From positions 4,156,001-4,220,000 of the forward strand of contig NC_087252.1 in NCBI RefSeq assembly GCF_037042905.1: a stretch of DNA of 64,000 bases, in the 5' to 3' direction. Each line of letters begins with the position of its first letter. Within the stretch, counting starts at the first letter, position 1. Made by a program: the position numbers and the translations under genes. The notes under the pieces were generated by a model. The model searched no databases, was not told the DNA's origin, and worked only from the letters and a program-made list of their open reading frames with translations. Positions 3,401 to 57,681 of the stretch are shown piece after piece. Source of the DNA: Lytechinus pictus (taxonomy: Eukaryota).

Positions 3401-6400
3401 AATGTTTTCTCTTGGTAGTATGTTAGCATAAAGGATATACACGGTTTTGTAGAACTTCCTATTACTGTAAGAAAAAGGGATCAAGCACACCAATGGTGTA
3501 GGATGATGATCTGTAGGATCACTTTGGCATGTGTGTGTCTGTTAAGGTTACAAAATGTTGAATATCTGTTCTAAATGCTTCAATTTCACTGAAAGGTTGA
3601 TTTTATAGACTAAAGTTTACAAGTATGTGAAAATTGCAATGATGTCCAAGGTAAATACATGTACCAGAGGTCAACCATATTTTTAAGGAAAGAAATGTGC
3701 CCTTATTTGCTCGATGGTGTTTGAAGCTGAATGTTATAAAAAAAAACTGTCAAAGGTCATCAATAGGGGTTAATAGCTTTTCTTACACCCAATTTTGAGG
3801 TCTTTAACCAAGTTCTATTAGTGATTTCTATGGAAGCAATGAATCGCTAGCAAATAAAGCAACCAGATAGTGAGTTATTACACAAGTAATTATCTATGAA
3901 ACATGCAAAAAATGAATGTATTTTTACTTTGAGTCATGTCAAGATCATCATCATCATCATTGATATTCCAAATGGGAAGAGCTCAGGTTATCAATTTTTC
4001 AATGAAGAGGAATCATGCGCTTTCATTTTTGCCTTCAGTTTCAATCCCATAATCATTCTGACTTTTATGTGTATATCTAGGTGGTCCTGTGCTTACTGCT
4101 GTAGAAGCATTCCGATCAGGTCTTAACAGCATCACCCTCCGATGTCAAACCAAGGGAGCCCCCACCCCTACCACCACCTGGCAGATGGGGACCACACCCT
4201 TGCCACACCCATCAGTGACCGGTCATTCAGTATCCCCTGATTGGTCATTGGTCATTACTGGTCAGAGTGTTGGGGTGGATGACGTGTATTCCTGTGTAGC
4301 TACCAATCGTTATGGTTCTGTGACGGCAACACTTCAAGGTATGCATAAGATTTGTTTCTGAATCGAACTTTCCCATTCCTCCTGCATTCTGTAATATACA
4401 GTCATTCATTGTCCCCTGATTGGTCATTAATAATCTTGGGTCAATTTGTTAGGGGAAGGGGGGGGGGGAGTTATTTGTACTTGTATTCCTGTGTGGCAAC
4501 TGACCCCTATGGTTCTGTAACAATAACACTTCTAAGGTATGTGTAGGAATTCTTCTTGCCCCTCTTGCACCCAGTAATTACTGTTATTTCAATATGTCCT
4601 AAGGGGTCATTGGTCATTTGCGATCAGAGTATATGATGTGTATTCCTGTATAGCTACCAAATCTCTCTGGTTCTGTGACGGCGACACTTTAAGGTATGCG
4701 TAAGATATGTTTGTATTCTGAACCTACCCTACCCATTCCTCCTGTAGTACATAATAATTATAATACAAATACATGGATAAAAGAAATAAAATGAAAGTAC
4801 TGATAAAGGGGAAAAAGATATATGGTTTTAGGAGTTTCTTGAATTTATTTGTAGAGTTGATGATTTAAATAAGGATGTGATGTTTTCCATTATTTAGGGG
4901 CAGTTAGAATGAATGTGCGATCACCAGGTTTTGTACGAGCCTTTCGAATGGCAAGCAAAAAAAAAGTAAATAAATGAATAATTAGAGTGATGATGTGTAT
5001 GTTGTTGATGATGATGATGATGTTTGATGTTGACAAATTGTAGAAGGGAGATAATCTCTGAAAGCCAATTGTAATTGGCAATCTAACAGTGTAAAAATCT
5101 CTGTTCTTCATTTTATCTCCTACAGTTCCTGGACAGGTAGCCACACCCACAATCTCTGACATCACATCAACCAGTCTGAATCTCAGCTGGGCCACGCCCA
5201 CCCCCACCAGCGACCTGCCAATCACAGCCTACAATGTCCAATACCAGGCAGAGTCAAGTAATGAATATTCATTAGCTGGAGAGACAGGTGACCCTTTTTA
5301 CACAGTAGAAGGTCTGCAGCCCTATACAGGGTATTGGTTCAGGGTGCAAGCAGTGAATGGACTTGGAGTGGGTCCGTTTAGTCCAGCTACCAGTCTTGTG
5401 TCTACAGCACAGGGAGGTAAGGTAGCTTGTAAAAGTTCAGTTGCATCTAAATTGAAAAAACCCTTAACATTCTCTGATTTATTTCAAGGAAAAGGAGAAT
5501 AAAAGTAAATAACATTAGAGAAGTCTTGTTTAAAAAAATATTGTGAACTATGATGTGTGTTTTATTTAGGATTGTTCATATGGATTAAAAAAAAAATCAT
5601 CCAAGAAAATATATGCAATTAAAATTGTGTACACACTTTCAAGATGGCTCATTTAAATGCTCTGGTGGGGACAATAATTCTAACACATATAGTATAATAA
5701 AGTAAGTGCAATTACATGTATGCGCATAATCTACAGTGTAAATCCCTCCCAGTTCAAGCCCCTGTTATGAATTTTGTGCCTTTATATAGCTCACTTGCAT
5801 GAATCTACTTACAAATTGTTTAACTTTGATGATACTTAGCCTCGTAGATGGCAATTGTGATTTAGAAAAAACATCAAAATCAACAATGATTCAATGTCCG
5901 ATTAATCGTTTGAATATACTTTCATAAATACCTTCTTGTTTCTATTAACTATTGCCCAATCTGTAGAGAGGAGCTTATTGAAGCTTATAAAGTTATGGTA
6001 ATGTGGGCTATGCTGTGAACAATTGAATACCCCCCCCTCTCTATCTTTCTGTCTCCTATTTTAGGTTAATTCACTTTTTTTTTCCTACAAGTGCAGAGCA
6101 GAAGCCTTTTAAAGCCATTTTATAAGTCTCTTCACTGCACAAACTGCAGTTTGTTTACTGTCAAGTGTTTTTGAAGTGAAGATATGATTTCCCTGTGCAA
6201 AATTTGTTTGATTTCATTCAGTTACTTAGTATGGAGATTCAGTTTAAAAAGGAAAATGTCATTAAGAGACAATATAAAGAGATCTGTATGGAATTCACAT
6301 ACATTTTATATGAATGAATCTCAAATTTTGGTTGAAGTTTGTGCTGTGTTTTCTTCTTCATCCATAATTGTCTGATTAAAGATCCTTATTTTTGAAAGTT

Positions 6401-9400: not shown

Positions 9401-12400
9401 TTATACCTCTTAACCATTTTGAAATTAAAGTAAAGAATATTATTATTTTACTTTTTTATCTTGTTTTGATATGATTTTTTTAATTTTCCAAATAACATTA
9501 CTAAAGAAGCCTATGGAAAATGATGTCTTTTCCTATTTTTATAAATCAAAATCATCTCTATTTTCCACTTTACCTGGGTTGGGAGGTCTGCATACTGTAT
9601 CCGTTTTTAAAGTTGCTATCGAAAATGCAAGTCGGGGTGTATTTGAGTGAGCTTAATCATTCAAAATAGCAAAAGAAAAGATACCTCGTTTCCCAGAAAC
9701 ATGAAGTAGTTAATATTTAAGTATATTTCTTCATTTCTTACCAATACTTGTCACCTTCTTCTATTTATCTGTGTATTTGTTCATCCAGCTCCAACATCAG
9801 CCGTGGAAAACTTCAGTGCGAAAGCAAACAGCTCATCCTCAATATGGCTTGTGTGGCAGGTATGTATTGGATCTGCATAGTATTTCATTAAACAGATCTT
9901 CAGTGACAACTGTTGTAAGCTTCTGAAATCCTTGCATCTGATTGGCTCAGAGCAAATTTCTGAGTGAAAATTACCAACAAGATGCTTCATGACGTACTTC
10001 CCTAATATCTATTATTTGATCTATGATTTGATTACAATCTACCTCTTTTCATATCAAAATATACAGAGCAAAGCGACTGATCAAACAGTGAATTTTTCAT
10101 TTGATTGATTGTATATTGTGGTCAATGCAATCAATTATGAAAATGTCATTCTATGCTGAATTGCTATGCTTTTTAGCAATGTGTTAGAGATTCCTGATCA
10201 TTCTTTTGACACTAATTATTTTAGGATGTTGTCTTTCAGGGTTCCCAGCCCATCTGGGAATTTTTTTTTTTCTAGTCAGGGAATTTGATAAAAATGCCTC
10301 AAGGGAAAAGTATAAATAGAGTTTTGATTGGCTTCAAAACAGTGCTGAAGAAGGCGCAAGCTTATGTGCAGCAAATTCATTATTCAAATTCAAATTCAAT
10401 ATATTCTTGATAATAATTAAAACATCAAATTGTACATTCGTATATGGAAATATCAATACAAGAAAATGAGGGCAACCAAAAGTTTACACTTGAAATATGA
10501 CAGGATAGTGAGGCAATTCTGAGAATTGCTTGGACAGCTTCAGCTTCAGTTCAGGAAAATGGGTGAAACTGGTAATTAGTAGAAATAATCATGGAATTTT
10601 GAGAGTTCTTCAGGAAAAAATCAGGGAATTCTATTTTATTGAAATGCAGTCCTGTCTTTTCACTCTGAAACATACTGTTGTAGTGTGCAGGGACAACACC
10701 GCATCACAATATTTTTTCAATAAATTTTCGCTTGCAGCCGATCATCGATGAAACCTTTGAAGCGTACCTCATCTCCTTCCGGATCCTCAACTCATCTGAT
10801 ATGGCCCCAGACGTTGCCCTGACGGCCCGGGAGGCGTCCTCCTATCTCATCATTGGTCTCCCTAGCGGCACACCACATGGAGTACGCATGGCTTATCAGA
10901 ACGCCGGAGGGCTGAGCCCGTTCACACGGGAGATTATTGTTACTACACTATCAGGTGAGATAGTCTGGAGGAATTTGAAAGATCTATTTACGTTAAGACA
11001 ATTAGGGACAATCCCACAAGGGCAAAGGGTGATTTTCCCTTTAGTTTAGCTAACTTCTCATACATGTATTTTAAAGGACTTAAGAGCTAGAGAGAGAGAG
11101 AGAGAAGAAAAAAAAAAGAAAAGAGAGAAACTAAAAAACACCTCATCATTTTCAAGAATATTCTGACTTGTACATCCTACATTTAGAAATCTTGTTAAAA
11201 TGCTTCCCAGGGAGTGGAGAAAGTGCATACATTGTGTGCGGGCATACCTGAATCCGATGACCAATTACAATGTTAAGCGCTGAGAAACAAAGTATTTAGC
11301 TCAATGTAAAAGTTACTATTATTATTATCATTACATTTTCATCACTTTGATTTTATCTTATATATCTACTTGGTCATTTTAGCAGATGAAACTACCGCAG
11401 ACCGACTCCAAGGCGGGGGTATAAACGGTGGTATCATAGCAGCTATTGTGTGTGGTATCTTAGCTGTTCTTCTTATCCTAGCTTTACTTTCATTTGGAAT
11501 GTTATACTGGAAGAGAAAGAATGATGATTGGTCGGGACAAAGTCACTTCAATGTGGATTCACTCTGGATCAACAGACGGTCAGTATATATAATGATATAT
11601 TGAATGTGTAGGTGCCATTAAATGTGTACTGTACATCATGTTCAGTTGGGTAGTATTACTATCCCACTGTGAGTTGATAGATATAGTACAATGTATTAAC
11701 AAAAGGGTAATATTTTGTATATTTCACCTCTTCGAATATCTCTGTTGTTTTGCTTTCATGATTAGAAGGCATAATTTATTTATATGATTATAAAAAAAGA
11801 GATAGTTTTTGCATTTTTTTGGCAATTAGATAATTGTATTGACACTTCACAACCTCTGGGATTGAATTGGAAGAGGGAATTATAAATCAAGACTTATCTC
11901 ATCTGAAATGGACTTCTAAGATTTTGTTTTTTTGGGGGGTGGGGGAGGGGGTGCAACATCAGTGTTATGAAAACAAGACTTGTAGAAATGAAATGTCTAG
12001 AAGATTTCTTGTCTAGGCTTATTATTTCCAGCATATATGACTTTTGCATGAAAATTGTTCTATCGTGTGTAAAAGAAAAAATAACAATCCACATTTCTTT
12101 TTTACTGTTATGTGCCCATTAAATGTATCATAATGGGGGTGTTTGTTATAGCTGTACATACACTGTTTGTCAGTTTATGCCTGACTTTGCCAACCACTAG
12201 AATAAGTAGGACCAAAATTGGAGCCCAAACTTTTCCTGGGCCCCATCTTACAAAGAGTTTGCGATTGATCCAATCAGTCACAACTATGGAAAGCCAGCAA
12301 CCTCAACATCTATCATGCATGTTTGTTCAAAATATTTTCTAACTATGATATGTATATATTCATGCATTCAATGTTTTCTTGAAATTTTGCTGTGCTTCTC

Positions 12401-15400
12401 TTTGTTTACAAAGGAAAAAAATTATGACACTGATGGATTTTCATAGAGTTACGATCGATTGGATCAATCGTAAATCTTTGTAAGACGGGGCCCTGGAGCT
12501 ATAGCAAATTATGACTTATATATGAAATATTATAACAACGGTTGTGGCAAGATAGACTTGAAATGTTCTCCAATAGGCTTGTATATAACCTTAATAGATG
12601 ATGTGATTATAATGCCTTAGAAACGGCTTTTGGCTTGTTGTATTTTAATTGTTTGTAAAGTCTAGCATAACTCTGTAAACAGGTTTTATGAAATACTCCC
12701 TGGTTACACTCAATCTCTTTCTCACAGATAACACCTTCTACTGTGTGGATGATTCTGTTCTATATTCTGGTATACTGGGCACTTCTGTAATCTATATTAT
12801 ATTAATCTCTGCTGGAGCAACAAAACTACCTTGACAAAAAAAGTTGCATGTTCAGGTTAGAGAGAGGGAAACCAAATCTGCCTTAAAACAGCTTGCGGTG
12901 TCCAAACTTTTTAATCAGTTGCAAATTTCTGTCACAGTTTTACAATTGTTAGATAAGTTTTAGCTGTAGCAAATCAGTTTACACTCCTTGTAGCAAAAAT
13001 ACATGTATATCAGCAATCAATTGCAAATGAACAATTAATTGCAAGACATAGATATATGATTGATATTGCCCCTCCCCCCAAAAAATAAAAATAAATAAAT
13101 AAAAAAGAAAAAAAAGCAATTGATAGCTAGTTTCTTGTGACCCCTGATTAGTGGCTTGGGTTAGGACATCCTGATTACACTTCAACTAATACATGTCCCT
13201 CAAAATTAAATTTGGAGATGTTTTGTTGCTCCAGTGAGAATATCTTCATAACTGACCTCTTTTTGTTTATTATGTTGTGTGAATTCCATTTCTTTAGATT
13301 CTTTGTCATTTTAAAATACCTCTTTCTACTTTTATTTCCATCCTTTGTTTGATTTGCTTGTTGCATGAATCCCTTCTTATTCTTATGGCTTTCACCTCTT
13401 CAAACTTAAAATGCATGCATACAAAATACACTCCTATTTATTAATACTCGTATCTAAAAAAATGTGTTAATAATGCCATTCTGTATTTCCTGCTTTCATT
13501 TGGACCTATTATTTTCATTTTTATTTTTTTCTTGCTGCCATTTCAAAATTGTACTCTCATCCGTTTAACTTTCTCATGAATTACTTCAACAAAAAATAAA
13601 AAATAAATAAACCTACTTATATCATTGTGCTTTATAACATTTCCAATGTTCTTGTACTATATTATGCCTTTCAACCTTTCTTCACCTTGTTAAAATCCTT
13701 TACACTTCTATTACTTCTTTCTGCATATTCCCATATTTATCTGTTTATCATTGCTTACATGCCCATTATACTGTCGTCAAATCCCATTTTTGAAATACCA
13801 TGCTGCAAATGTTTTCATGTGAATGAATGGTTATTTTCTTATATAATACCTTCCCTGGTATGCCTGTTTATATTGACCTTTGAATCATATGACCCCTTGC
13901 CCACTTTATAAATGACCCTTGAATTGTATGACCCTTGTCCCAATTTATAATGACCCTTGAAACTTATGCTCCCTTGCTCTATTCAAAAATGACCCTTGAA
14001 CTATGACGTCTTGGTCTATTGATGATTGAACGTTGAACTGTATGGCCCCTCCTCCATTTTTAAATGGCATTTGCACCATCCGACCCCTTGCCACATTCAT
14101 TGATGACATTTGATCCATGTGACCCTCATCCTCTTGCCCCACATGACCTTTTAAATCGTACAATCTCTTACCCCGTTCATGGATGAACTTTGACCCTTGC
14201 GACCTTTGCCCTCCTGCATGACATGACCCTTGAACTAATATCAGATTTTCCTACGGTGATTCCATTTCCGTTGCCACCACTGTGGACGACAGCGGCGGCT
14301 CACAGAAAGGTGTCTACGACCTCTCCATGGTCAACGAGAACTTTTCGCCGGACGAAACTGGGATGTCGTCCGACTCTGCGTACGATCTGGGTGGGGCTGG
14401 AGGAGGGAGGAGAGGAGATTCTCTAGAGGTGTCACCAAGGTCAGAAGCATCAGAAGGAGACGAGAAGGGGAAGAAGAAGAAAAGGAGATGGAAGGGCTTC
14501 CCTGATGTCATCTATAAAAAGTAAATTCTGATTATCATGTCCTAACTTTTTTTTTGTTGCTTTTTGTAATTTGTGTTTAGGTGTGAGGATTATTGATGAA
14601 AAGATGCTTGTGGGATTCTTGCAGGAAATACTTGGTTCTGAGCTTTGATAAAGCTTAGAGCCTGAGGCCCATATTCTGAAGTCGGGTTTAACTTAAACTC
14701 GGGTTTATAGTTGTGGTTTAAGTATGGGAAGCCAATTGTTACATAAATCACTAACGGTAGAGATATCATATTTCAGCTCATTTGGCTCTCAAATCATTCA
14801 TAATTGTCTAAGAAGTATATGTAGATTATTGTCTTCACCATAGATGAATCAGGAAAGAGCACAGTAAACATAAGAAACGTACAACTTAAAATAAAGATTT
14901 GATACTTTTGGCTTCCCATACTTAAACCACAAATTTAAACCTGAGTTTAAGTTAAACCTGACTTCAGAATACGGGCCTGAGAGTATGAAAGAGAGGGGGA
15001 GATAAAAGTAGTAGGGGAGTATCAGAGAAAAGGAGAGAGAATGGGATTGAAGGAAGAAAAGAGAAATTACCAGCTGCACTAACAACTCAGCCATTACAAC
15101 ACCACTCTGTAACAATCCGTTGAATGAATACATTTATTAATTCGGCATTCATGAATAATTCATGACAAATGTTTCTTCTCTTCTTTGTCTATTAGCCCTG
15201 ATAATCCTGGTGTAGTGTTGGTCAGTCAAGCAGTGATAGGAGATGTGTCCCCACCTCCGGTACAAGTCAATAAAGAAGAAGTCCTTTCAGAAGGTAACAT
15301 ACTCTACATGTATATGAAGTTTCTTCTTTTGTGTTTTTTTTTATGGGAGCCATGTCTGTTTTTCTTATATTTCAGTGAATGAGCGTTATCTTTGTATTTC

Positions 15401-16888
15401 ACTCCTTCTCTATACAGAACATGTACAGTACATGATGTTCTATCTCCTTCCTCCACTTTCTACTCCTTGCTCCTGTTTCTCTTCTTCTCTTCTTCTTCCC
15501 CTTCACCCTCTTCTCCTTCCCCCTCTTTTCCTTCCTCCTCTTCTGACTCTTCCTCCCTTTCTTCTCTTTCCTCTCCATCTACTTCACCTTCTCCTTATTC
15601 ACTTTCTCTATATTTATCTCATTTTCTCTGTCTTCTTCTTTCCTTTGAATTTTCTGATGCCTTCTGAATTTAATGAATATTAACCAGGTAAAAGGAGACT
15701 AAGTTGTAACTGGAATACACAAATTTTCCAGAACTATATTTTAAGCTATCATTATAAATATTTATTATCAATTATTATTGTGATTATTATTTTATGTCAA
15801 AGTGGCAAGAGGTTTGCCAAACGATATGTCCAAGTCCATAGCATTGATTTGCAATTATTTTATTGCACATCAATAGTCAGTTTTCTAGATTCTACACCAA
15901 GTAAATAATGGAAGCTCGAGAACACAAAAGTTGCTGTTTATTGACTATAAAAAAGATGATTTAATAAATTAAATTTAATATATGAACAAAGTTTAAATTT
16001 ACCTGTCAGATTGATAATGAAAATAAAATCACTGTGTTTAATATATCATATGATATCCAGAGATGTTGCTAATCAGTGGAGAATTTTTGGACGTTGAACC
16101 TGAAGGTCCAGGGTTCAAATCCCACTGCAATACTCAAGTCTTCCTGCAAGGCTTTTATCTATGTTTGCCACTTTTCACTTTGGTGAAGAAAATGTGTAAC
16201 TGGTAGGAAAAATTTACTTAAGGAAATCCCTTGAATGCTGCAGCATCCAGTAATAATATGCAGTGCTAAGAACATTCATGTATGAAAGTGTTGTTATATT
16301 ATTATTGTTATTGTCATATGAAATGTTAACATATTAAAAAAAATATCATTTATATATTCAGATGAGGCAGAGCAAAGCGAGCCAAGACCGTTAAGTTTGG
16401 CAGAGGACTCCCTTCCACTCAGTTTCGACTCTACATTCGATAGGTCAGTCGGAGTTGAGGAAAACATTTATGTTGAGGTTGGAGAAGCCGCTGCTGAGAG
16501 TCCTCCTCTCAACACAAATCCCCATGGCAACGAAGGAGACTCCAGAGGCCTGTCGCCCGAGTTCCCGGTCTTCCCGAACGCTGACGACAGCGTCAAGCTC
16601 TCTGACGATCTCCACGTTGACCGCAAGCTGATGAGAAAGATGGAGAGGAAAGCGGAGAGAGAACAGGAGAAGAAGGCGAGGAAGAAGGAGAGAGAGGAAG
16701 AGAGGAGGAAACAGAAGGAGACGGAGAGAGAAGAGAAGGAGAGGGATAAGATGTTTGGTGGAGGACGGAGGATGTCCGGTGGGATCGGGAAGATTTTCAA
16801 GAAAAAGAAATCAGATGAAATACCCTACCCCGAGACAAACTTTGGTATAACTACGGAGAGACAGGTCGAAAATGCTGGAATGTTTTAG
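354..16888 (+). CDS. Ig/FN3 type I transmembrane receptor or adhesion protein, 5'-incomplete (gene span, 14 exons)
   Basis: Exons 354-488, 1402-1536, 1988-2299, 3064-3354, 4081-4338, 5126-5416, 6859-6951, 9092-9301, 9789-9859, 10738-10954, 11386-11578, 14245-14520, 15196-15293 and 16362-16888 are all AG/GT bounded and phase-compatible (about 1035 codons). They encode 4 Ig domains (C...W...D.G.Y.C), 3 FN3 domains, a TM helix (IIAAIVCGILAVLLILALLSFGMLYW, then KRK) and a low-complexity tail. The architecture is Robo/CDON-like, but orthology is not established. Confidence 0.88.
1402..1536 (+). CDS. receptor exon, Ig domain C-half
   Basis: SNSSIVIDGLLETNTGEYTCIATNAAGS; cag acceptor, gtgaga donor. 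Confidence 0.88.
1988..2299 (+). CDS. receptor exon, Ig domain
   Basis: VPKFTTAPSN...IRCRADARETPIISWY...DEGWYLCLAENSAG. Confidence 0.9.
3064..3354 (+). CDS. receptor exon, Ig domain
   Basis: PPRVTS...LSCEIEGQPTPDITWF...HDGDFVCVLSNFLG. Confidence 0.9.
4081..4338 (+). CDS. receptor exon, Ig domain
   Basis: ITLRCQTKGAPTPTTTWQ...DVYSCVATNRYGS. Confidence 0.9.
5126..5416 (+). CDS. receptor exon, FN3 domain 1
   Basis: ITSTSLNLSWATP...YNVQYQ...VEGLQPYTGYWFRVQAVNGLGVGPFS (translated by hand; absent from the ORF track). Confidence 0.9.
6859..6951 (+). CDS. receptor exon, FN3 domain 2 N-part
   Basis: APSRPRSVEVAAVGNVITVTWSAPSRLNG. Confidence 0.85.
7255..8190 (-). mobile_element. partial Kolobok-type (TTAA) MITE interrupted by the LINE fragment
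   Basis: 7969-8190 and 7255-7280 are the reverse complement of about 39621-39860. Confidence 0.85.
7281..7968 (-). mobile_element. 5'-truncated CR1-group LINE fragment with (TTGAA)n tail
   Basis: ORF2 C-terminus (HKYNTRN...YTGPTVWNSLP...FKKNLK) homologous to 57403-57681; tail at 7281-7307; TSD ATAAAGT at 7274-7280 and 7969-7975. Confidence 0.9.
8412..8595. mobile_element. palindromic Harbinger-like MITE (CWG flanks) within a cluster of related copies at about 8245-8810
   Basis: GTTTCATAAAGCTGTTC...GAACAGCTTTATGAAAC arms, flanked by CCTGG/CCAGG. Confidence 0.75.
9092..9301 (+). CDS. receptor exon, FN3 domain 2 C-part
   Basis: IIYEVLTYP...IDSLEYVMDYEVKVRAGNSALREWS. Confidence 0.85.
9789..9859 (+). 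CDS. receptor exon, FN3 domain 3 N-part
   Basis: APTSAVENFSAKANSSSSIWLVWQ; cag acceptor, gtatgt donor. Confidence 0.85.
10738..10954 (+). CDS. receptor exon, FN3 domain 3 C-part
   Basis: YLISFR...YLIIGLPSGTPHGVRMAYQNAGGLSPFT. Confidence 0.85.
11386..11578 (+). CDS. receptor exon, transmembrane segment
   Basis: Hydrophobic helix followed by KRK. The acceptor is TAGCAG (NAGNAG), so the start could be 11383. Confidence 0.88.
12239..12492. mobile_element. Harbinger-like MITE, CTG TSD
   Basis: ctg-GGCCCCATCTTACAAAGA...TCTTTGTAAGACGGGGCC-ctg; a related degenerate element lies at about 41370-41522. Confidence 0.8.
13874..14235. repeat. degenerate minisatellite, about 10 x 39 bp (TGACCCTTGAA..TATGACCCCTTGCCC..)
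   Basis: Periodic TGACC(C/T)TTG motifs ending at the acceptor of exon 14245. Confidence 0.8.
14245..14520 (+). CDS. receptor exon, cytoplasmic
   Basis: Phase 2-2 exon FSYGDSISVATTVDDSGGSQKGVYDL...KKKKRRWKGFPDVIYK; GC-rich coding composition. Confidence 0.8.
14666..14977. mobile_element. Harbinger-like MITE, 3-bp TSD TGA
   Basis: About 70-bp TIR GGCCCATATTCTGAAGTCGGGTTTAACTTAAACTC.../...GAGTTTAAGTTAAACCTGACTTCAGAATACGGGCC. Confidence 0.85.
15196..15293 (+). CDS. receptor exon, cytoplasmic
   Basis: Phase 2-1 exon PDNPGVVLVSQAVIGDVSPPPVQVNKEEVLSE; needed to link the phases of its neighbours. Confidence 0.75.
16362..16888 (+). CDS. receptor terminal coding exon
   Basis: Contains ENIYVEV and an E/K/R-rich helix; ends ENAGMF then TAG. 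Candidate AATAAA near 19958. Confidence 0.85.
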
Positions 16889-19623: not shown

Positions 19624-21039
19624 TTACAGGTTACAATATAAATTCCAAGAAACATGTAAAAAAAAATGTTTGATCCGTAAGTTAAAGGGGGGGGGGGGGG
19701 ACTCTCCCTGTTTTTTTTTTTTTGGGGGGGGAGGGGTGGTACCTCGACTTGTTTTCATCAACAGTAATTGTAAACAATCGATTCTGTGGATTGAACTTTA
19801 TGTACTTTGTCGTTCTAAGATGTCAATTCATTTTCCTAATATTTAAGTTTTATTTTCCAGTGTGTCCTTTTAATCTACTGCTGCATATAAATGTGAATGA
19901 TTATATGTATTCATTGTTACAAGTGAATGAAATGAATTTAGATACTATGCAAATAGTAATAAACATATTTTGTAATGTATAAGAATTTTAACGACTTGAT
20001 GCTCTTTCTGTTTGTCTCTCAAAGTCTTAGGGTGGTACATTTGTAAAGCATTGATTAAGTTAACCAATCATCTTAGACCACGCTTTAAAAATATTGTTAT
20101 TGATGTTCAGTTTCCAATTTATTTTCCAAATATGAATGATATAAATCCTCTCGTTTAAAAAATGGCAATATCATTGTAGAATGAGTTTTTAAAGTGATCA
20201 TTTAACTTTGTTCTGATTTAAAAAATTCTCCTTTTTGTTCCTGAAAATGGGCTAAACATTAGGCTTATAGTGTAAAAATACCATCCCAAAAGTTTCAAAG
20301 TATTATATTTACAGGATCAATTTTAAAACCTTGGAGATGTAAACCAAAGTTTGAAAATAATTGGGAGTTGGTTTCAATGACTAGTGTATAGGCCTATACA
20401 GGGAATCTAGCTGTACACCACAACACATTATTTCTAGATGCATGAACACAGCCTGACCTACATACAGTGTGTACAAGGTATACACTGAATGTACAGTGCA
20501 GCTATATAGCGTGTGTATAGGAGATACACACAACAGAAGGCAGTCAAAATAGCCAACGGACTTTTTGAATTGGAGAAAACTGGTCATAAGCTGAACCCGT
20601 CTACTAGACGGTTCTCAAAATCAGGCTAATAAATTGCTACTTGTATCTAAATCAGAGTTTTTCATCCTATATTGTGGTCTGTTTCAGGGTTTTTGAGGAC
20701 AAATACAGGCACTCATACGCACGTTTCAACTCAGTTTGAGAATTTTTTTAATCAGCTGCTCACAAAGTTAAACGATCCCTTTAAATGATTTCATTTGGGA
20801 TCTTACCTTTTTTTTCTTGAATACAGAGTAAGGAGGATTAAGCTAGCATTTCATGGACTAAAATTCTTGTTTAGTCAGGACCATTATATCCAAGTTTAAT
20901 GATCAGAATACCACCCTAAGATTTCAAACATTTGATAATGAAACTTACCGTGATGATGGCAAATGGGGAAAATTCACTGTGCTGTATTGAATTGAGGTTT
21001 CATGATGTTTGCCCTGGCAACAATTATGCTGCTATAAAT

Positions 21040-21548
21040 CATAATGATCATAGTGAAGAACTTGTATAGAGGATAATGATCATGCCTGAAGAAGATCTAT
21101 ATTAGTTGAGAATCATAATTATCATGATGGAGAAGAAATTAGATGAGAATCATAATTATCATGATGGAGAATATATGAGATGAGAATCATAATTATCATG
21201 ATGGAGAACATATGAGATGAGAATCATAATTATCATGATGGAGAAGATATTAGAGGAATCATAATTATGATGGTGAAGAAATATGAGTTGAGAATCATAA
21301 TTATCATGATGAAGAAGATATTAGAGGAGAATCATAATTATCATGATAAAGAATATATTAGAGGAGAATCATAATTATCATGATGGAGAAGATATTAGAG
21401 GAATCATAATTATGATGGTGAAGAAATATGAGATGAGAATCATAATTATCATGATGAAGAAGATAATATTAGAGGAATCATAATTATCATGATGGTGAAG
21501 AAATATGAGATGAGAATCATAATTATCATGATGAAGAAGATTATATTA
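21040..21548. repeat. minisatellite, about 12 x 37 bp (GAATCATAATTATCATGATGGAGAAGATATTAGAG)
   Basis: Direct tandem units about 250 bp upstream of the GK ATG. Confidence 0.9.
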
Positions 21549-21796: not shown

Positions 21797-43665
<21,869 letters not shown>

Positions 43666-53426: not shown

Positions 53427-53769
53427 TTTACATGTATGTACTACAGGCACTATTGATTAAACATTTATTTTTTTGTAAAAAAAGAAAATGGAATCGATTT
53501 TGAATTTCATCCTTTAAACAAAATCATTCCAGAAAGTTCGCACAGTTGAGACCCGCTCCACTGCCCCCCTTTTTTTTTGGGGGGGGGGGGGAATTCTCCT
53601 TCTCGATCTCTTTCAAAGTAGTGCTTATAGTATTATATGTGTTTTTCGCATTTGTTTTTTAACCCACATGATCTACTGAGCCATGAGGCTGAAATATACA
53701 TGTGTACAAATAACAAATAGGGCTAGAAATAAAATCATAATATAGAACAAAAGATATTGAATTAAAAAT

Positions 53770-54469
53770 GGCATATTCTTCATGACGACGATCTACTATC
53801 AGCTATCAAAGAGGCTGTTCAAGAAGCAGTAGAATTAAAGGTTAAAGACCTTTTCTTGCGGCTTGAAAAACAAGAAGGCCAGCTGCTGGATCTTCAGTCC
53901 ATGCTTAGCAACTGTCAAATGGATGTAGCTGACCTAAAAAAGAAAAGAGAATGTGATTTGATCGAGATGAGTAACCTGAAAAACAAACGAACGATTCGGA
54001 ACAATATTCCCGACGGAACAATGTCCGATTCTTTGGAGTCCCTGAAGTGAATGGAGAAAAGACCGACGAAACAGTTGTTAGGATCGCCAAGGATTTACTC
54101 GGAATAGATCTTCCGCTCACTGCTATTGACAGGAGTCATCGCGTACGCCGTCAAAACCCTCCCCGAGAAAATGTTCGTCCAAAGCCAAGGCCAATCATTG
54201 TTAAGCTTACGTCTTACAGGTACCGTCAAGCTCTTTTGATGAATAGGAAGCGCCTGAAAGAGAAGAAGACAGGGATAAGCGTTTATGAGGACCTCACTGA
54301 TGCTAATAGAGTGCTTCTTTGGAATTCCCTCTCTGAATGTAGAAAGCAGGACAGCAAAATCTCCCACGCATGGTCCGCGGACGGAAGAATCTTCGTATCA
54401 GTGAAGACTTCTGGAAAAGAAAACTTGAAAAAACGAATCCACTCAAAGAGAGATCTAGAATATGTGTGA
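53770..54469 (+). pseudogene. LINE ORF1 (coiled coil plus RRM-like), frameshifted and apparently 5'-truncated
   Basis: ORFs 53856-54050 and 54047-54469 join through a frameshift near 53990. Confidence 0.8.
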
Positions 54470-54667
54470 TTTTATATTATAATGGAAGCAATATTCTTCA
54501 TGTGAAATAAATCACTCATGTTATAATACAATGTTTATCTCCATATGTATCTGATTTCAAACGGTATACAACTTCATTTTTTTCTTTCTTTTTATAAAGT
54601 TTTAATTTTGAATAAGTTACTTATTTGTTATTTATGTTAATGTTGTGTAATAACTTGTGTATTTTCG

Positions 54668-57600
54668 ATGTCTGTTAGTGTCAATGATGTGTTTGATCAA
54701 TTTGTTCAAAATGATGAATACAGGTTTGATTTGAACAGGTTACATGAATACCTATCTCCGGCTAATTGTCACGAAACTTTACTCCCCCAATCATATTTTT
54801 CAATTGATGGGTTTAATGAATATGTTAATGCAAATAACTCAGTCAATGACTTCAAAATTTTCTGTTTACATTTCAATTGCAGGAGTTTGATTAATAAATT
54901 CGATGAGTTCTCTTCTTTTTTGTCTTCTTTACAAATCCAATCAAGCATTATTGGGGTCACAGAAACATGGTTTACTGAGAATACTTCTGTTAATTTATAT
55001 AATATTGTTAACTACGATTTTATTAGTAACCCAAGAACGTCTAAACGGGGTGGTGGAGTAGGGCTTTACATAAAAAATGATTTGGAATTTAAGCGTAGGT
55101 GTGACTTAGAAATTAATGAGTCATATGTTGAAAGTATTTTTACTGAAATTAAGACGTGCAATAAAAGCATTTTAATAGGTATTGTATATAGACCTCCTTG
55201 TCAATCAATTACAGATTTCCTATCGTTTTTAGAAAATATATTGAATTTAGTTTGCAATGAAAATAAAATCTTATATTTAATTGGTGATTTTAATATCAAT
55301 CTTATGAATATAGGCAAATCTCAGAATGTAAATATGTATCTAGATCTTTTGCTGGCACATTCTATGTTTCCGTTAATTCAATCTCCTACACGTGTATATC
55401 ATCTACTTCAGTTACTTTGATCGACAACATTTTAACAAATGATTCTTGCCAATTCTCATCTGGTGTTTTTTTTAATGATCTGAGTGATCACTTTCCCATT
55501 TTTTGTATTAGTAATTTCAATTGCAATTTCAATCATACTAATGACTTTAACTTTAAAAGAGATTTCAATGATATTAATTTAAATCTTTTCATGCAATCAA
55601 TACAAGAAACTCAATGGCCATTGTCAGCGGAAGATCCTAATAAGTCTTATAATGAATTTTTAAATACATTTTTAACTTTATATAATAAACATTTTCAAAT
55701 TAAACGTACCAAATTACATAAAAAACAAAAAGACAAACCTTGGATTAATCAAGATATTCGGATATTGATCAAGAAAAAAAGTCGTTTATATAAACTTTTT
55801 GTAAAAAACCCTTCTGAGTACAGGAAAAATGTTTACAAAAAAGTACGTAATCTTTTAACTAATAAAATAAAGTCTCGTAAAAAAGAATATTATAAAAACG
55901 AATTTGACAATGCTCGTGGTAATATGAATAGTACATGGAAAGTAATAAATAATGCATTAGGAAAGGGTCACAAAAATACTATCATAAAACAAATTGTAGT
56001 TGATGACACTGAAATAACAGCAAATGAAATGATTACCGATAATTTCAATAATTACTTTGTTCATGTCGGTCTAGATTTAAATCGTAATTTTGATAATGTA
56101 AATAATAGTGATGCGGCTTCTTTTGTTGACAACAATATTCATTCTATATTTTTAAATCCCATAACATCATCTGAACTAATAAATATTACAAAGCAATTCA
56201 AAAACTCTTCTAGCACAGGGCATGATGACATCAGTATGAAGGTAATAAAAAAATGTATCTATTCTATTTGTCAACCATTATGTGCAATATTCAATTCTTG
56301 CCTTGACTCGGGCGTATTCCCAGATTCAATGAAGATTGCTAGAGTTATTCCTATTTTTAAAGGAGGAAATTCCGAAACGTTGTCCAATTACCGTCCCATT
56401 TCTATTTTACCCGTTTTTTCTAAATTATTTGAAAAATGTTTATATAATCGTATTTTAAATTTTATCAATAAGTGCAATATTTTTACCCATAGTCAATATG
56501 GGTTTAGAGCGGGGCACTCCACATCGTCAGCATTACTTGATTTTATTCAGAAAGTTACAAATGAAATTGATAACAAGAGTATATTGATAGGTTTATTTCT
56601 AGATTTGCGAAAAGCATTTGATACGTTAGATCATAATATTTTGTTGAAAAAACTATATGCATATGGAATAAGAGGAATTACTTTAGACTTATTAAAAGAT
56701 TATCTATCTAATCGCAAACAATATGTATTATGTAATGGAATTAAATCAGAATTGAAATCTATAAGATGTGGCGTGCCCCAAGGTTCGATACTTGGACCTC
56801 TTTTATTCCTTTTATATATTAATGACATGTGCAATGTATCCAGTAAACTTAAATTTATCTTATTCGCAGATGACACCAGTATATTCATGTCCCACAAAGA
56901 TTTACAGACGTTACAAACAGAATTTAATGAGGAATTACAGAAGGTTACCGATTGGTTATACTTGAACAAGTTATCCCTCAATGTTTCTAAAACTAACTTT
57001 ATGATATTTACAAATAAGAAAATAAACTCCAATGAAATTGATATAAAATTGTGTGGTTCAATGATAAAAGAAGTTTCATCTTTAAAATTTCTTGGTGTCA
57101 TAATCGATAATAAATTAACGTGGTTAAATCATATTGATGCCATCTGCAATAAGATATCTAAGAACATAGGCATAATGTACAAATTGCATAATTTTCCACC
57201 AAATATTTTAAAGATGCTGTATTATGCTATTATTTCACCATTTTAAAATTATGGCATTCTTGCCTGGGGAAGTGCTGCGAATATTTATTTAGACAGATTA
57301 CATAAACTTCAAAAACGTGCAGTCAGAATTATAAACAACTCCCCTTTTTACGCCCATTCTTATCCTATTTTTCATTCACTTAAAATTTTAAATATTTATG
57401 ATATGTACAAGTATGAAATGGGACTTTTTATGTATCTATGTTCTAAAGGACTTTTACCTTCTTTTTTATTGAACTGTTTTAAATTAAATTATAATATTCA
57501 TGCATACCCTACTAGAAATGCTGCAAACTTCCACCTTCCTAAAATAAGAACTTGCCTTTCTCATAAATCTATTTTCTTTCGTGGCCCACTACTTTGGAAT

Positions 57601-57681
57601 TCTTTGCCGGTTAATTTGAAAACATCTTGTTCATTTAATATTTTCAAACGTAACTTCAGAAACTTTATATTTGATAATTAA
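54668..57681 (+). pseudogene. LINE ORF2 (endonuclease plus reverse transcriptase)
   Basis: One frameshift near 55400 and an in-frame TAA at 57244-57246. The frame resumes as NYGILAWG...LQKRAVRII and runs to 57681. Confidence 0.92.

Follow-up and report, generated by a model that had tools for sequence, protein, structure and literature searches.

Introduction

The closest described counterparts of the locus reported here are the distant-branch-point exons of Gooding et al. 2006 (PMC1431707), for which the sections of that paper drawn on here give AG-exclusion zones of 381 nt (PTB exon 11), 438 nt (nPTB) and 590 nt (Fugu PTB), together with the count that, among 67,334 human introns, 838 have zones that reach 100 nt and 165 have zones that reach 150 nt. 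A second relevant system comes from Taggart et al. 2017 (PMC5378181), in the consulted parts of which the use of a downstream AG accompanies branch points that are located too close to, or past, an upstream AG. Regulation at the branch point itself is exemplified, in the excerpted text of a Fox-1 review (PMC2777236), by a UGCAUG element at position -34 that blocks SF1. No kilobase AG-free zones in echinoderms were found in the literature covered, which was that outside subscription journals; PMC10946897 and PMC2773006 include sea urchin introns and, in the portions available, do not treat zones of this length.

Here, the results for 64,000 nucleotides of the genome of Lytechinus pictus (the window; all positions are counted from its first letter) are reported, which contain a 945-nt zone without AG in front of two alternative acceptors of a receptor gene.

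Results

A 945-nt zone without AG

The AG-free zone is a real feature that is under selection. On the plus strand, AG is completely lacking for 945 nt, between the AG at 13296-13297 and the AG of an acceptor at 14243-14244 (A1), and the next-longest AG gap on this strand of the 64-kb window is 286 nt. The absence of AG described in the original prediction is thereby confirmed. About 26 AG dinucleotides would be expected from the base composition (mean 25.9, minimum 10), and none of the 5000 shuffled sequences was free of AG. The depletion is found in the non-repetitive 5'-part (13298-13870, 573 nt; none versus 13.1 expected) as well as in the repeat part (13871-14242; none versus 12.4 expected). 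It is specific for AG and exceeds what composition can explain, with 35 GA dinucleotides in a zone that is G-poor (101 G in 945 nt) and that consists to 39% of repeat. Its length before a real acceptor is far above the 150 nt from which zones count as long in the manner of Gooding et al., and the AG-exclusion zones of 13 other scored acceptors of the same gene have lengths of 34-103 nt.

The dinucleotide count and length ranking that had been proposed as a check were performed with a genome sample (400 kb in 40 evenly spaced stretches of 10 kb each; 41,584 gaps on both strands), in which the longest AG gap was 640 nt, compared to 945 nt here. Each of the eight gaps of at least 280 nt in this sample consists of simple or G-poor sequence, in which no more than 4.8 AG dinucleotides are expected. 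The original prediction had further claimed that purifying selection has kept AG out of about 1 kb and that the zone is connected with splicing. The former agrees with the shuffles and with the absence of AG among 89 substitutions in the repeat (see below), the latter with the end of the zone at an acceptor and with the location of all complex zones examined on the sense strand of genes.

The in silico folding of the zone was no better than that of shuffled sequences (z -0.97; 5 of 20 shuffles folded as well), and the folding of the acceptor region was likewise unremarkable compared with shuffles (z 0.68), so that RNA structure does not account for the zone. The only match in Rfam was a sub-threshold one to sR52, located in the exon (26.5 bits versus a gathering score of 50). 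The features of the locus are compiled in Table 1.

Table 1. Features of the intron with the AG-exclusion zone and of the adjoining exons.
Feature	Position	Strand	Basis
Transmembrane exon 5' of the intron; alternative start 11383 via NAGNAG; donor GT 11579	11386..11578	+	P0001/P0005 sequences, contig piece ending 11578, acceptor scan
T-rich lead-in with CTGAC (A at 13255) and last upstream AG, 13296-97	13239..13297	+	Sequence; single AG across 13239-14242
945-nt AG-exclusion zone, T-rich at its 5' end and increasingly C-rich towards its 3' end	13298..14242	+	AG scan, shuffles; folding not unusual
Candidate distant branch adenosines 13308, 13313/14, 13334, 13352, 13368, 13379 with pyrimidine tracts; two TGCATG (13362, 13412)	13305..13420	+	Relaxed motif matches; putative
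Three AATAAA (13595, 13602, 13606), probable intronic polyadenylation site	13595..13630	+	Motif scan, X15 depth and pieces
Intronic block with homology to another urchin's intron	13648..13807	+	tblastn P0002/P0003, E 1e-4 and 3e-4, 1.7-kb subject, two frames
Minisatellite, 9 units of 37-40 nt and a half unit, two TGACC-like halves each	13874..14244	+	Manual split; triple pattern unique in genome
Conserved acceptor-proximal module: TGCATG (-30), TGAC (-24, -19), ACTAAT	14215..14239	+	Motif scan; comparison with organism B and read-through ORFs
Upstream acceptor A1, long isoform	14243..14244	+	Orthologous long models P0010, P0011, P0012, P0014, P0017; not seen in RNA examined
48-nt in-frame alternative extension, 16 residues including a tyrosine	14245..14292	+	AG-free up to A2 (14291-92)
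228-nt core exon, cytoplasmic tail, tyrosine motifs and basic cluster	14293..14520	+	Present in all models

Two acceptors of a receptor gene

The gene encodes a sea urchin receptor with about ten Ig domains, three FN3 domains, a transmembrane helix and a cytoplasmic tail, in agreement with the original prediction that the zone precedes a cytoplasmic exon of a receptor. The matching RefSeq proteins of L. pictus are named hemicentin-1-like, and protein searches retrieved orthologues in Diadema and Acanthaster and further gene models. Downstream of the transmembrane exon, the intron begins with its donor at 11579. The NAGNAG acceptor of this exon, at 11381-11385, leads to a difference of one residue between the RefSeq isoforms X1 and X2. 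The intron that follows the last Ig exon contains, within 4062-4700, two degenerate partial copies (about 4405-4545 and about 4590-4700) of the end of that exon and its donor.

A second acceptor, A2 (14291-14292), is located 48 nt downstream of A1; usage of A1 adds 16 residues and usage of A2 adds none. In both RefSeq proteins of L. pictus the transmembrane exon is joined to 14293 via A2, and both are thus short. Of ten gene models that span the junction, five are long (two of Diadema antillarum, Acanthaster X1 and X2, and P0017, the insert of which matches 14245-14292) and five are short (the two L. pictus proteins, D. setosum, and Acanthaster X3 and X4), these counts being annotations of gene models and not read counts. 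The RefSeq isoforms of Acanthaster differ at the identical position, and a NAGNAG-like variant of one residue also exists at A2 in this genus. No further junction-spanning urchin proteins were found in protein searches. As the 228-nt core is present in all ten models and the long and short forms are equally frequent, the alternative lies in the choice of 3' splice site, which adds 48 nt, and none of the models gives a sign that the whole exon is skipped. The 48-nt insert, which places a tyrosine just inside the membrane, is in these annotations common to sea urchins and sea stars. These two groups separated about 480 million years ago.

The original prediction had described a regulated, frame-preserving cassette exon of 276 nt that carries tyrosine motifs and a basic cluster. 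The motifs and the cluster are present, albeit within the 228-nt core, and gene models attest alternative splicing of the segment 3' of the zone, with only the short form seen in L. pictus; the 276-nt unit does not hold, because it is the 48-nt extension that varies. The second acceptor, which is used in the RNA data and in the RefSeq proteins of L. pictus, was lacking in that earlier reading. Its statement that A1 has no adjacent pyrimidine tract is correct, as only 8 of the 16 upstream positions are pyrimidines.

Motifs and conservation near the acceptors

The positions given in the original prediction for TGCATG (13362, 13412 and 14215) and for an ACTAAT in front of A1 were reproduced. Three TGCATG compare with 0.6 expected (p 0.015, uncorrected), and the copy at 14215 is of the Rbfox type, i.e., a conserved UGCAUG in the upstream intron that adjoins the branch region. 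YCAY, YGCY, TGC and ACTAA are not enriched in the zone beyond its dinucleotide content. CTRAY occurs once, at -7, versus 7.9 times in dinucleotide shuffles. The ACTAAT (ACTAA at 14234) would place its branch adenosine at 14238, at a distance of 7 nt from A1 and 55 nt from A2, and would thus be better suited to serve A2 than A1.

At the opposite end of the zone, the 5' 573 nt contain no TGAC and no CTRAY, and are nevertheless fully free of AG. No strict match to a branch motif plus pyrimidine tract is located at the 5' edge, the only one in the zone being at -728. The best-looking motif in this region is the CTGAC with the adenosine at 13255, but an AG follows 41 nt downstream of it.

The zone is shared with organism B, a close relative, over 13992-14244, and more distant species were compared via read-through ORFs; orthologous intron DNA was not found in metagenome scans. 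Thirteen of the 16 differences from organism B are listed, and all 13 are substitutions in 13992-14182, with none listed in 14183-14292 (P about 0.003). None of these 13 created an AG, compared to 1.85 expected (P 0.12), which is not significant alone. The TGAC motifs at -19 and -24 are conserved in another urchin. Peptides that TGCATG could encode, at most 14 codons away from A1, are found in P0002/P0003, P0016 and P0020 and not in P0018, i.e., in three of four lineages, where the chance of compatibility is 0.048 for each peptide and back-translation is ambiguous. The longer read-through ORFs have the amino acid composition of AG-free zones, a score that is also reached by 1.4-2% of background stretches. 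The evidence from these ORFs is indirect.

A minisatellite that grew without AG

Tandem Repeats Finder (TRF) detects 3.7 copies of a 39-bp unit, and manual splitting extends this to nine full units and a half unit that ends in A1, with ten TGACC at 13874-14224, so that the earlier count of about ten diverged units was right. Compared with their consensus, the units carry 89 substitutions, none of which has generated an AG, although about nine would be expected (P(0) 0.0002; 1 of 5000 simulations). Thus, selection against AG kept acting on DNA that was inserted later.

The array accounts for an insertion of 355 nt, and the zone without it would comprise about 590 nt. The read-through ORFs P0002/P0003 of another urchin match the last unit with the acceptor and also an intronic block (Table 1), and the spacing between the block and the last unit is about 75 nt in that urchin versus about 430 nt in L. 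pictus, which indicates that the array was amplified in the L. pictus lineage or lost in the other urchin. Unless it was lost there, the array would appear to be an amplification, in this lineage, of the module that adjoins A1. Organism B carries at least the 3' two thirds of it. A 20-nt intronic element at 13790-13810 occurs once here and apparently twice in tandem in P0002/P0003, in two frames.

A pattern search revealed that the triple TGACC pattern occurs a single time in the whole genome. The double pattern (a TGACCCTTG pair) has 12 genome matches, two of which are in this zone; eight of the ten other loci (two overlapping neighbours being omitted) lie in AG gaps of 29-143 nt. A general role of such arrays as an acceptor signal is thereby rejected. 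The window contains another minisatellite, with a 37-bp unit, at 21037-21541, in front of a gene that starts at 21798 and that we take, from its N-terminal motif, to be glycerol-kinase-like, and LINE-like ORFs are present at 53766-57681.

RNA evidence

Four RNA runs of low depth were available (X15, X19, X20 and X5; tissues not given), X5 being from organism B. Because intron repeats swamped the junction rows, splice usage was read from contig pieces and depth. In X15, one contig contains the pieces 14292-14520 and 16360-16600, and the depth in the bin 14132-14308 equals 17 bases at a depth of 10.4, i.e., usage of A2 only. X19 and X20 have a value of 0.19 each in this bin, equal to two reads each that start at 14292, and X5 has a piece that starts at 14292, in addition to an unspliced piece, 13992-14321, that is unbroken at A1. 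Usage of A1 was thus seen in none of the four runs, all of which fit A2 at low depth (about two reads each for X19 and X20, contigs for X15 and X5). No lariat reads were visible among the junction rows listed for the four runs.

X15 contains unspliced RNA from 11549 through 13587, with a depth of about 6 versus 10.4 for the spliced form. It ends at about 13630, as calculated from bin depths, just past three AATAAA motifs; the depth is zero at 13778-14290, and the downstream introns are without unspliced RNA. Translation of the read-through RNA would stop after seven more residues. These contigs, which by their nature cannot prove an RNA end, suggest intronic polyadenylation inside the AG-free zone. 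A read-through product of 11579-13630 would be a receptor with almost no cytoplasmic tail. X15 gives no sign of an alternative last exon that starts from the AG at 13296, as the piece 12467-13587 is continuous across it. In X5, the unspliced piece 13992-14321 has a depth of 10.9, compared to about 4 further upstream in the intron and zero in the downstream introns; this contig of the 3' intron could represent retention, a slow intermediate or an internal start.

Other kilobase zones in the genome

Long AG-free zones are present in further genes of this genome: 821 and 654 nt with one AG between them in the CaV-beta gene, 916 nt in the p190RhoGAP gene, 916 nt in a RapGAP gene and 939 nt in a PLC-beta gene, all four confirmed on the gene sequences, and 805 nt in a second RapGAP gene (near 21,655,000 of C7). 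The latter has its own C-rich minisatellite and precedes exon-like sequence. It is located on the minus strand (last 379 nt of L049 and first 426 nt of L050), downstream of the exons for the Rap_GAP domain, and a CTCAT with a strong pyrimidine tract is found 30 nt from its 5' edge; as it is G-poor, only seven AGs are expected there. The p190RhoGAP gene contains further AG-free runs on the plus strand, of 575 nt (L044:8794-9371) and of 261 and 718 nt (L045:8607-9590), so that one gene holds several long zones.

All kilobase zones examined are on the sense strand of their genes. The T content falls from the first to the last fifth in all six zones, and the C content rises clearly in four. In three of the five other zones, a strict match to branch motif plus tract is found no further than 60 nt from the 5' edge, and 6 of 11 matches have this location, compared to about 1.3 expected, although the matches are not independent of one another. 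A fourth zone has a CTRAY 14 nt from the edge; two of the five are without any strict match to branch motif plus tract. TGACC arrays are absent from these other zones.

Discussion

The reading that we favour, and to which we give about an even chance of being right, is that the locus is a very long AG-exclusion zone that serves an alternative 3' splice site, with a branch point about 860-990 nt upstream leading to A1 and one that lies past A1, or too close to it, leading to A2. Every branch point and every regulator named in the following is deduced from the layout of the locus. In a permissive cell type, U2AF and U2 would assemble on the T-rich 5' edge and a branch adenosine about 860-990 nt upstream would be selected. 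After the first step, the spliceosome would use the first downstream AG, which is A1, and 16 residues including a tyrosine would be added inside the membrane. An intervening new AG would be used instead and would break the frame, and therefore AG would have been purged over the whole distance, including the 355-nt insertion. By default, a proximal branch point, either the ACTAAT 7 nt before A1, which is too close to this acceptor, or a TGAT within the 48 nt, would lead to A2. The likeliest switch, by analogy with calcitonin exon 4, would be an Rbfox protein on TGCATG, two copies of which are near the distant site and one of which is at -30.

Scanning from a distant branch point to the first AG is thus proposed as the reason why the whole interval, the old and the inserted part alike, is AG-free. 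A branch point near A1 does not require an AG-free stretch over the 5' 573 nt, which counts in favour of a distant one. It should be noted that several observations point the other way: usage of A1 was not seen in the four runs and both RefSeq proteins of L. pictus are short, the 5' edge has no strict match and two of the five other zones have none at all, the CTGAC at 13255 is followed by an AG, the TGAC motifs at -19 and -24 look good, the distance exceeds that of the published zones quoted above, and the avoidance of AG among the substitutions of organism B is not significant by itself.

These motifs are the starting point of a different reading, which is possible but carries clearly less weight: A1 would be weak and would depend on the TGAC motifs at -19 and -24, the zone would be a field of weak branch, pyrimidine and regulator sites in which any AG would be switched on together with A1, and the array would have multiplied these sites. 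The motifs have a normal branch distance and are conserved in another urchin, TGAC occurs 13 times in the array versus 6.9 times in shuffles, and the poor pyrimidine tract at A1 and the missing strict match at the distant edge would fit as well. Long zones, UGC and CUAAY mark eMIC targets (PMC8797185), and longer zones are also found in front of exons repressed by U2AF35 and of alternative 3' sites (PMC4402522), as far as the sections of these papers drawn on here go. Against a field of this kind, the 5' 573 nt have neither TGAC nor CTRAY and yet lack AG throughout, TGC and YCAY are no more frequent than the dinucleotide content predicts, the other kilobase zones do not contain TGACC arrays, and other TGACCCTTG pairs are found in short gaps of 29-143 nt. 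The distant branch point could, moreover, have a different role and be a slow or reversible holding state that delays the intron, so that the cell can pick A1, A2 or polyadenylation at about 13625, which would yield the almost tail-less receptor. Distal branch points have been proposed as such in the consulted part of Taggart et al. 2017 (PMC5378181), and the unspliced RNAs of X15 (from 11549 to about 13630, about 6 versus 10.4, past the three AATAAA) and X5 (13992-14321, 10.9), neither of which has a counterpart in downstream introns, could be its traces. We consider this unlikely, since each of these observations comes from a single run, the library type of X15 is not recorded, contigs cannot show RNA ends, and the A-rich sequence at 13590-13611 could have caused internal priming; in addition, a holding state does not replace scanning as the reason for the loss of AG.

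The array could also be a DNA element, i.e., clustered direct repeats for nuclear receptors that act as an enhancer or an internal promoter. TGACCCTTGAACT presumably reads as a nuclear-receptor DR1 on the other strand, and three matches to it with at most one mismatch are all in the array (0.27 expected); the higher depth of unspliced X5 RNA in the 3' intron (10.9 versus about 4 upstream) would also be compatible with an internal start. This is very improbable, however, as it explains neither the loss of AG on one strand nor the AG-free 573 nt outside of the array, most units have decayed from the motif and are still AG-free, and the matches are copies of one repeat and thus not independent. 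Least probable is that the zone arose neutrally, from a low G content together with the tandem duplication of a unit that contained no AG. The zone is indeed G-poor and 39% repetitive, and microsatellites do give long AG gaps. But the shuffles without a single AG-free sequence in 5000, the 35 GA dinucleotides, the 89 substitutions without AG and the end of the zone exactly at a conserved acceptor are not reconciled with neutrality, and a neutral origin is rejected by the composition shuffles and by the simulation of repeat decay.

Returning to the scanning model with a distant branch point, a more general and more speculative version, which we hold tentatively and with somewhat less confidence than the model for this locus, would be that sea urchins make routine use of branch points 0.8-1.5 kb upstream to control alternative acceptors, that the spliceosome at the second step tracks about 1 kb of AG-free single-stranded RNA, and that zones grow freely by AG-free tandem duplication, with the 355 nt here and a second case before a RapGAP exon. 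At the present locus, the choice between distant and proximal branch points would switch a tyrosine-bearing insert of 16 residues that is conserved from urchins to sea stars, with intronic polyadenylation as a third outcome. The zone is of interest mainly as a member of a class. If branch points are routinely about 1 kb away from acceptors, 3' splice-site scanning would reach roughly twice as far as is accepted, and short-range predictors of branch points would miss a whole class of regulated events. If the branch point is instead proximal, another cause would have to be sought for the removal of AG from a kilobase of intron. The locus is a good test case, because the choice between the two acceptors shows which branch point was taken and the decayed repeat preserves a record of selection.

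The zone is most likely, judging from its layout, a long variant of the known distant-branch-point acceptor that recurs in this genome. In common with the exons of Gooding et al., as presented in the sections considered, it has an AG-specific gap that extends to the acceptor of an alternative segment, a pyrimidine-rich 5' end and regulator motifs in between. Its 945 nt are about 1.6 times the 590 nt of Fugu PTB, the longest of the zones quoted above, and the online list of that study may hold longer ones. In contrast, the event here is an alternative 3' site, for which Gooding et al. saw no enrichment at long zones in the part of their work used here. The likeness to Taggart et al. 2017 (PMC5378181), within the excerpts used, is that a branch motif is too near to the upstream AG and a downstream AG is used, with a distal site in addition to one in the expected zone; that work is based on lariat reads from human cells, whereas here the sites are deduced from layout and the distance is far longer. 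The Rbfox-repressed calcitonin exon 4 (UGCAUG at -34; PMC2777236) resembles the TGCATG at -30 beside branch-like motifs and a weak acceptor, but the available account of that exon includes no kilobase AG-free zone, and Rbfox is suggested here by its motif.

MBNL1 intron 4/exon 5 (PMC4176163) and the eMIC/SRRM4 exons (PMC8797185) are, in the sections drawn on, short cassettes, whereas here a constitutive exon is extended by 48 nt, and neither YGCY nor TGC is more frequent than the dinucleotide content predicts. A weak acceptor, a long zone, UGC and CUAAY are all present, but the nearest TGC is at -30 and the CTAAT at -7, and TGC is not enriched; the 48-nt extension is continuous with the 228-nt core and is not a very short cassette, so that this is not a microexon cassette of the eMIC type. 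To the known systems, the locus adds a conserved twin acceptor, a repeat in which continuing selection is recorded and, within the zone, a possible polyadenylation site.
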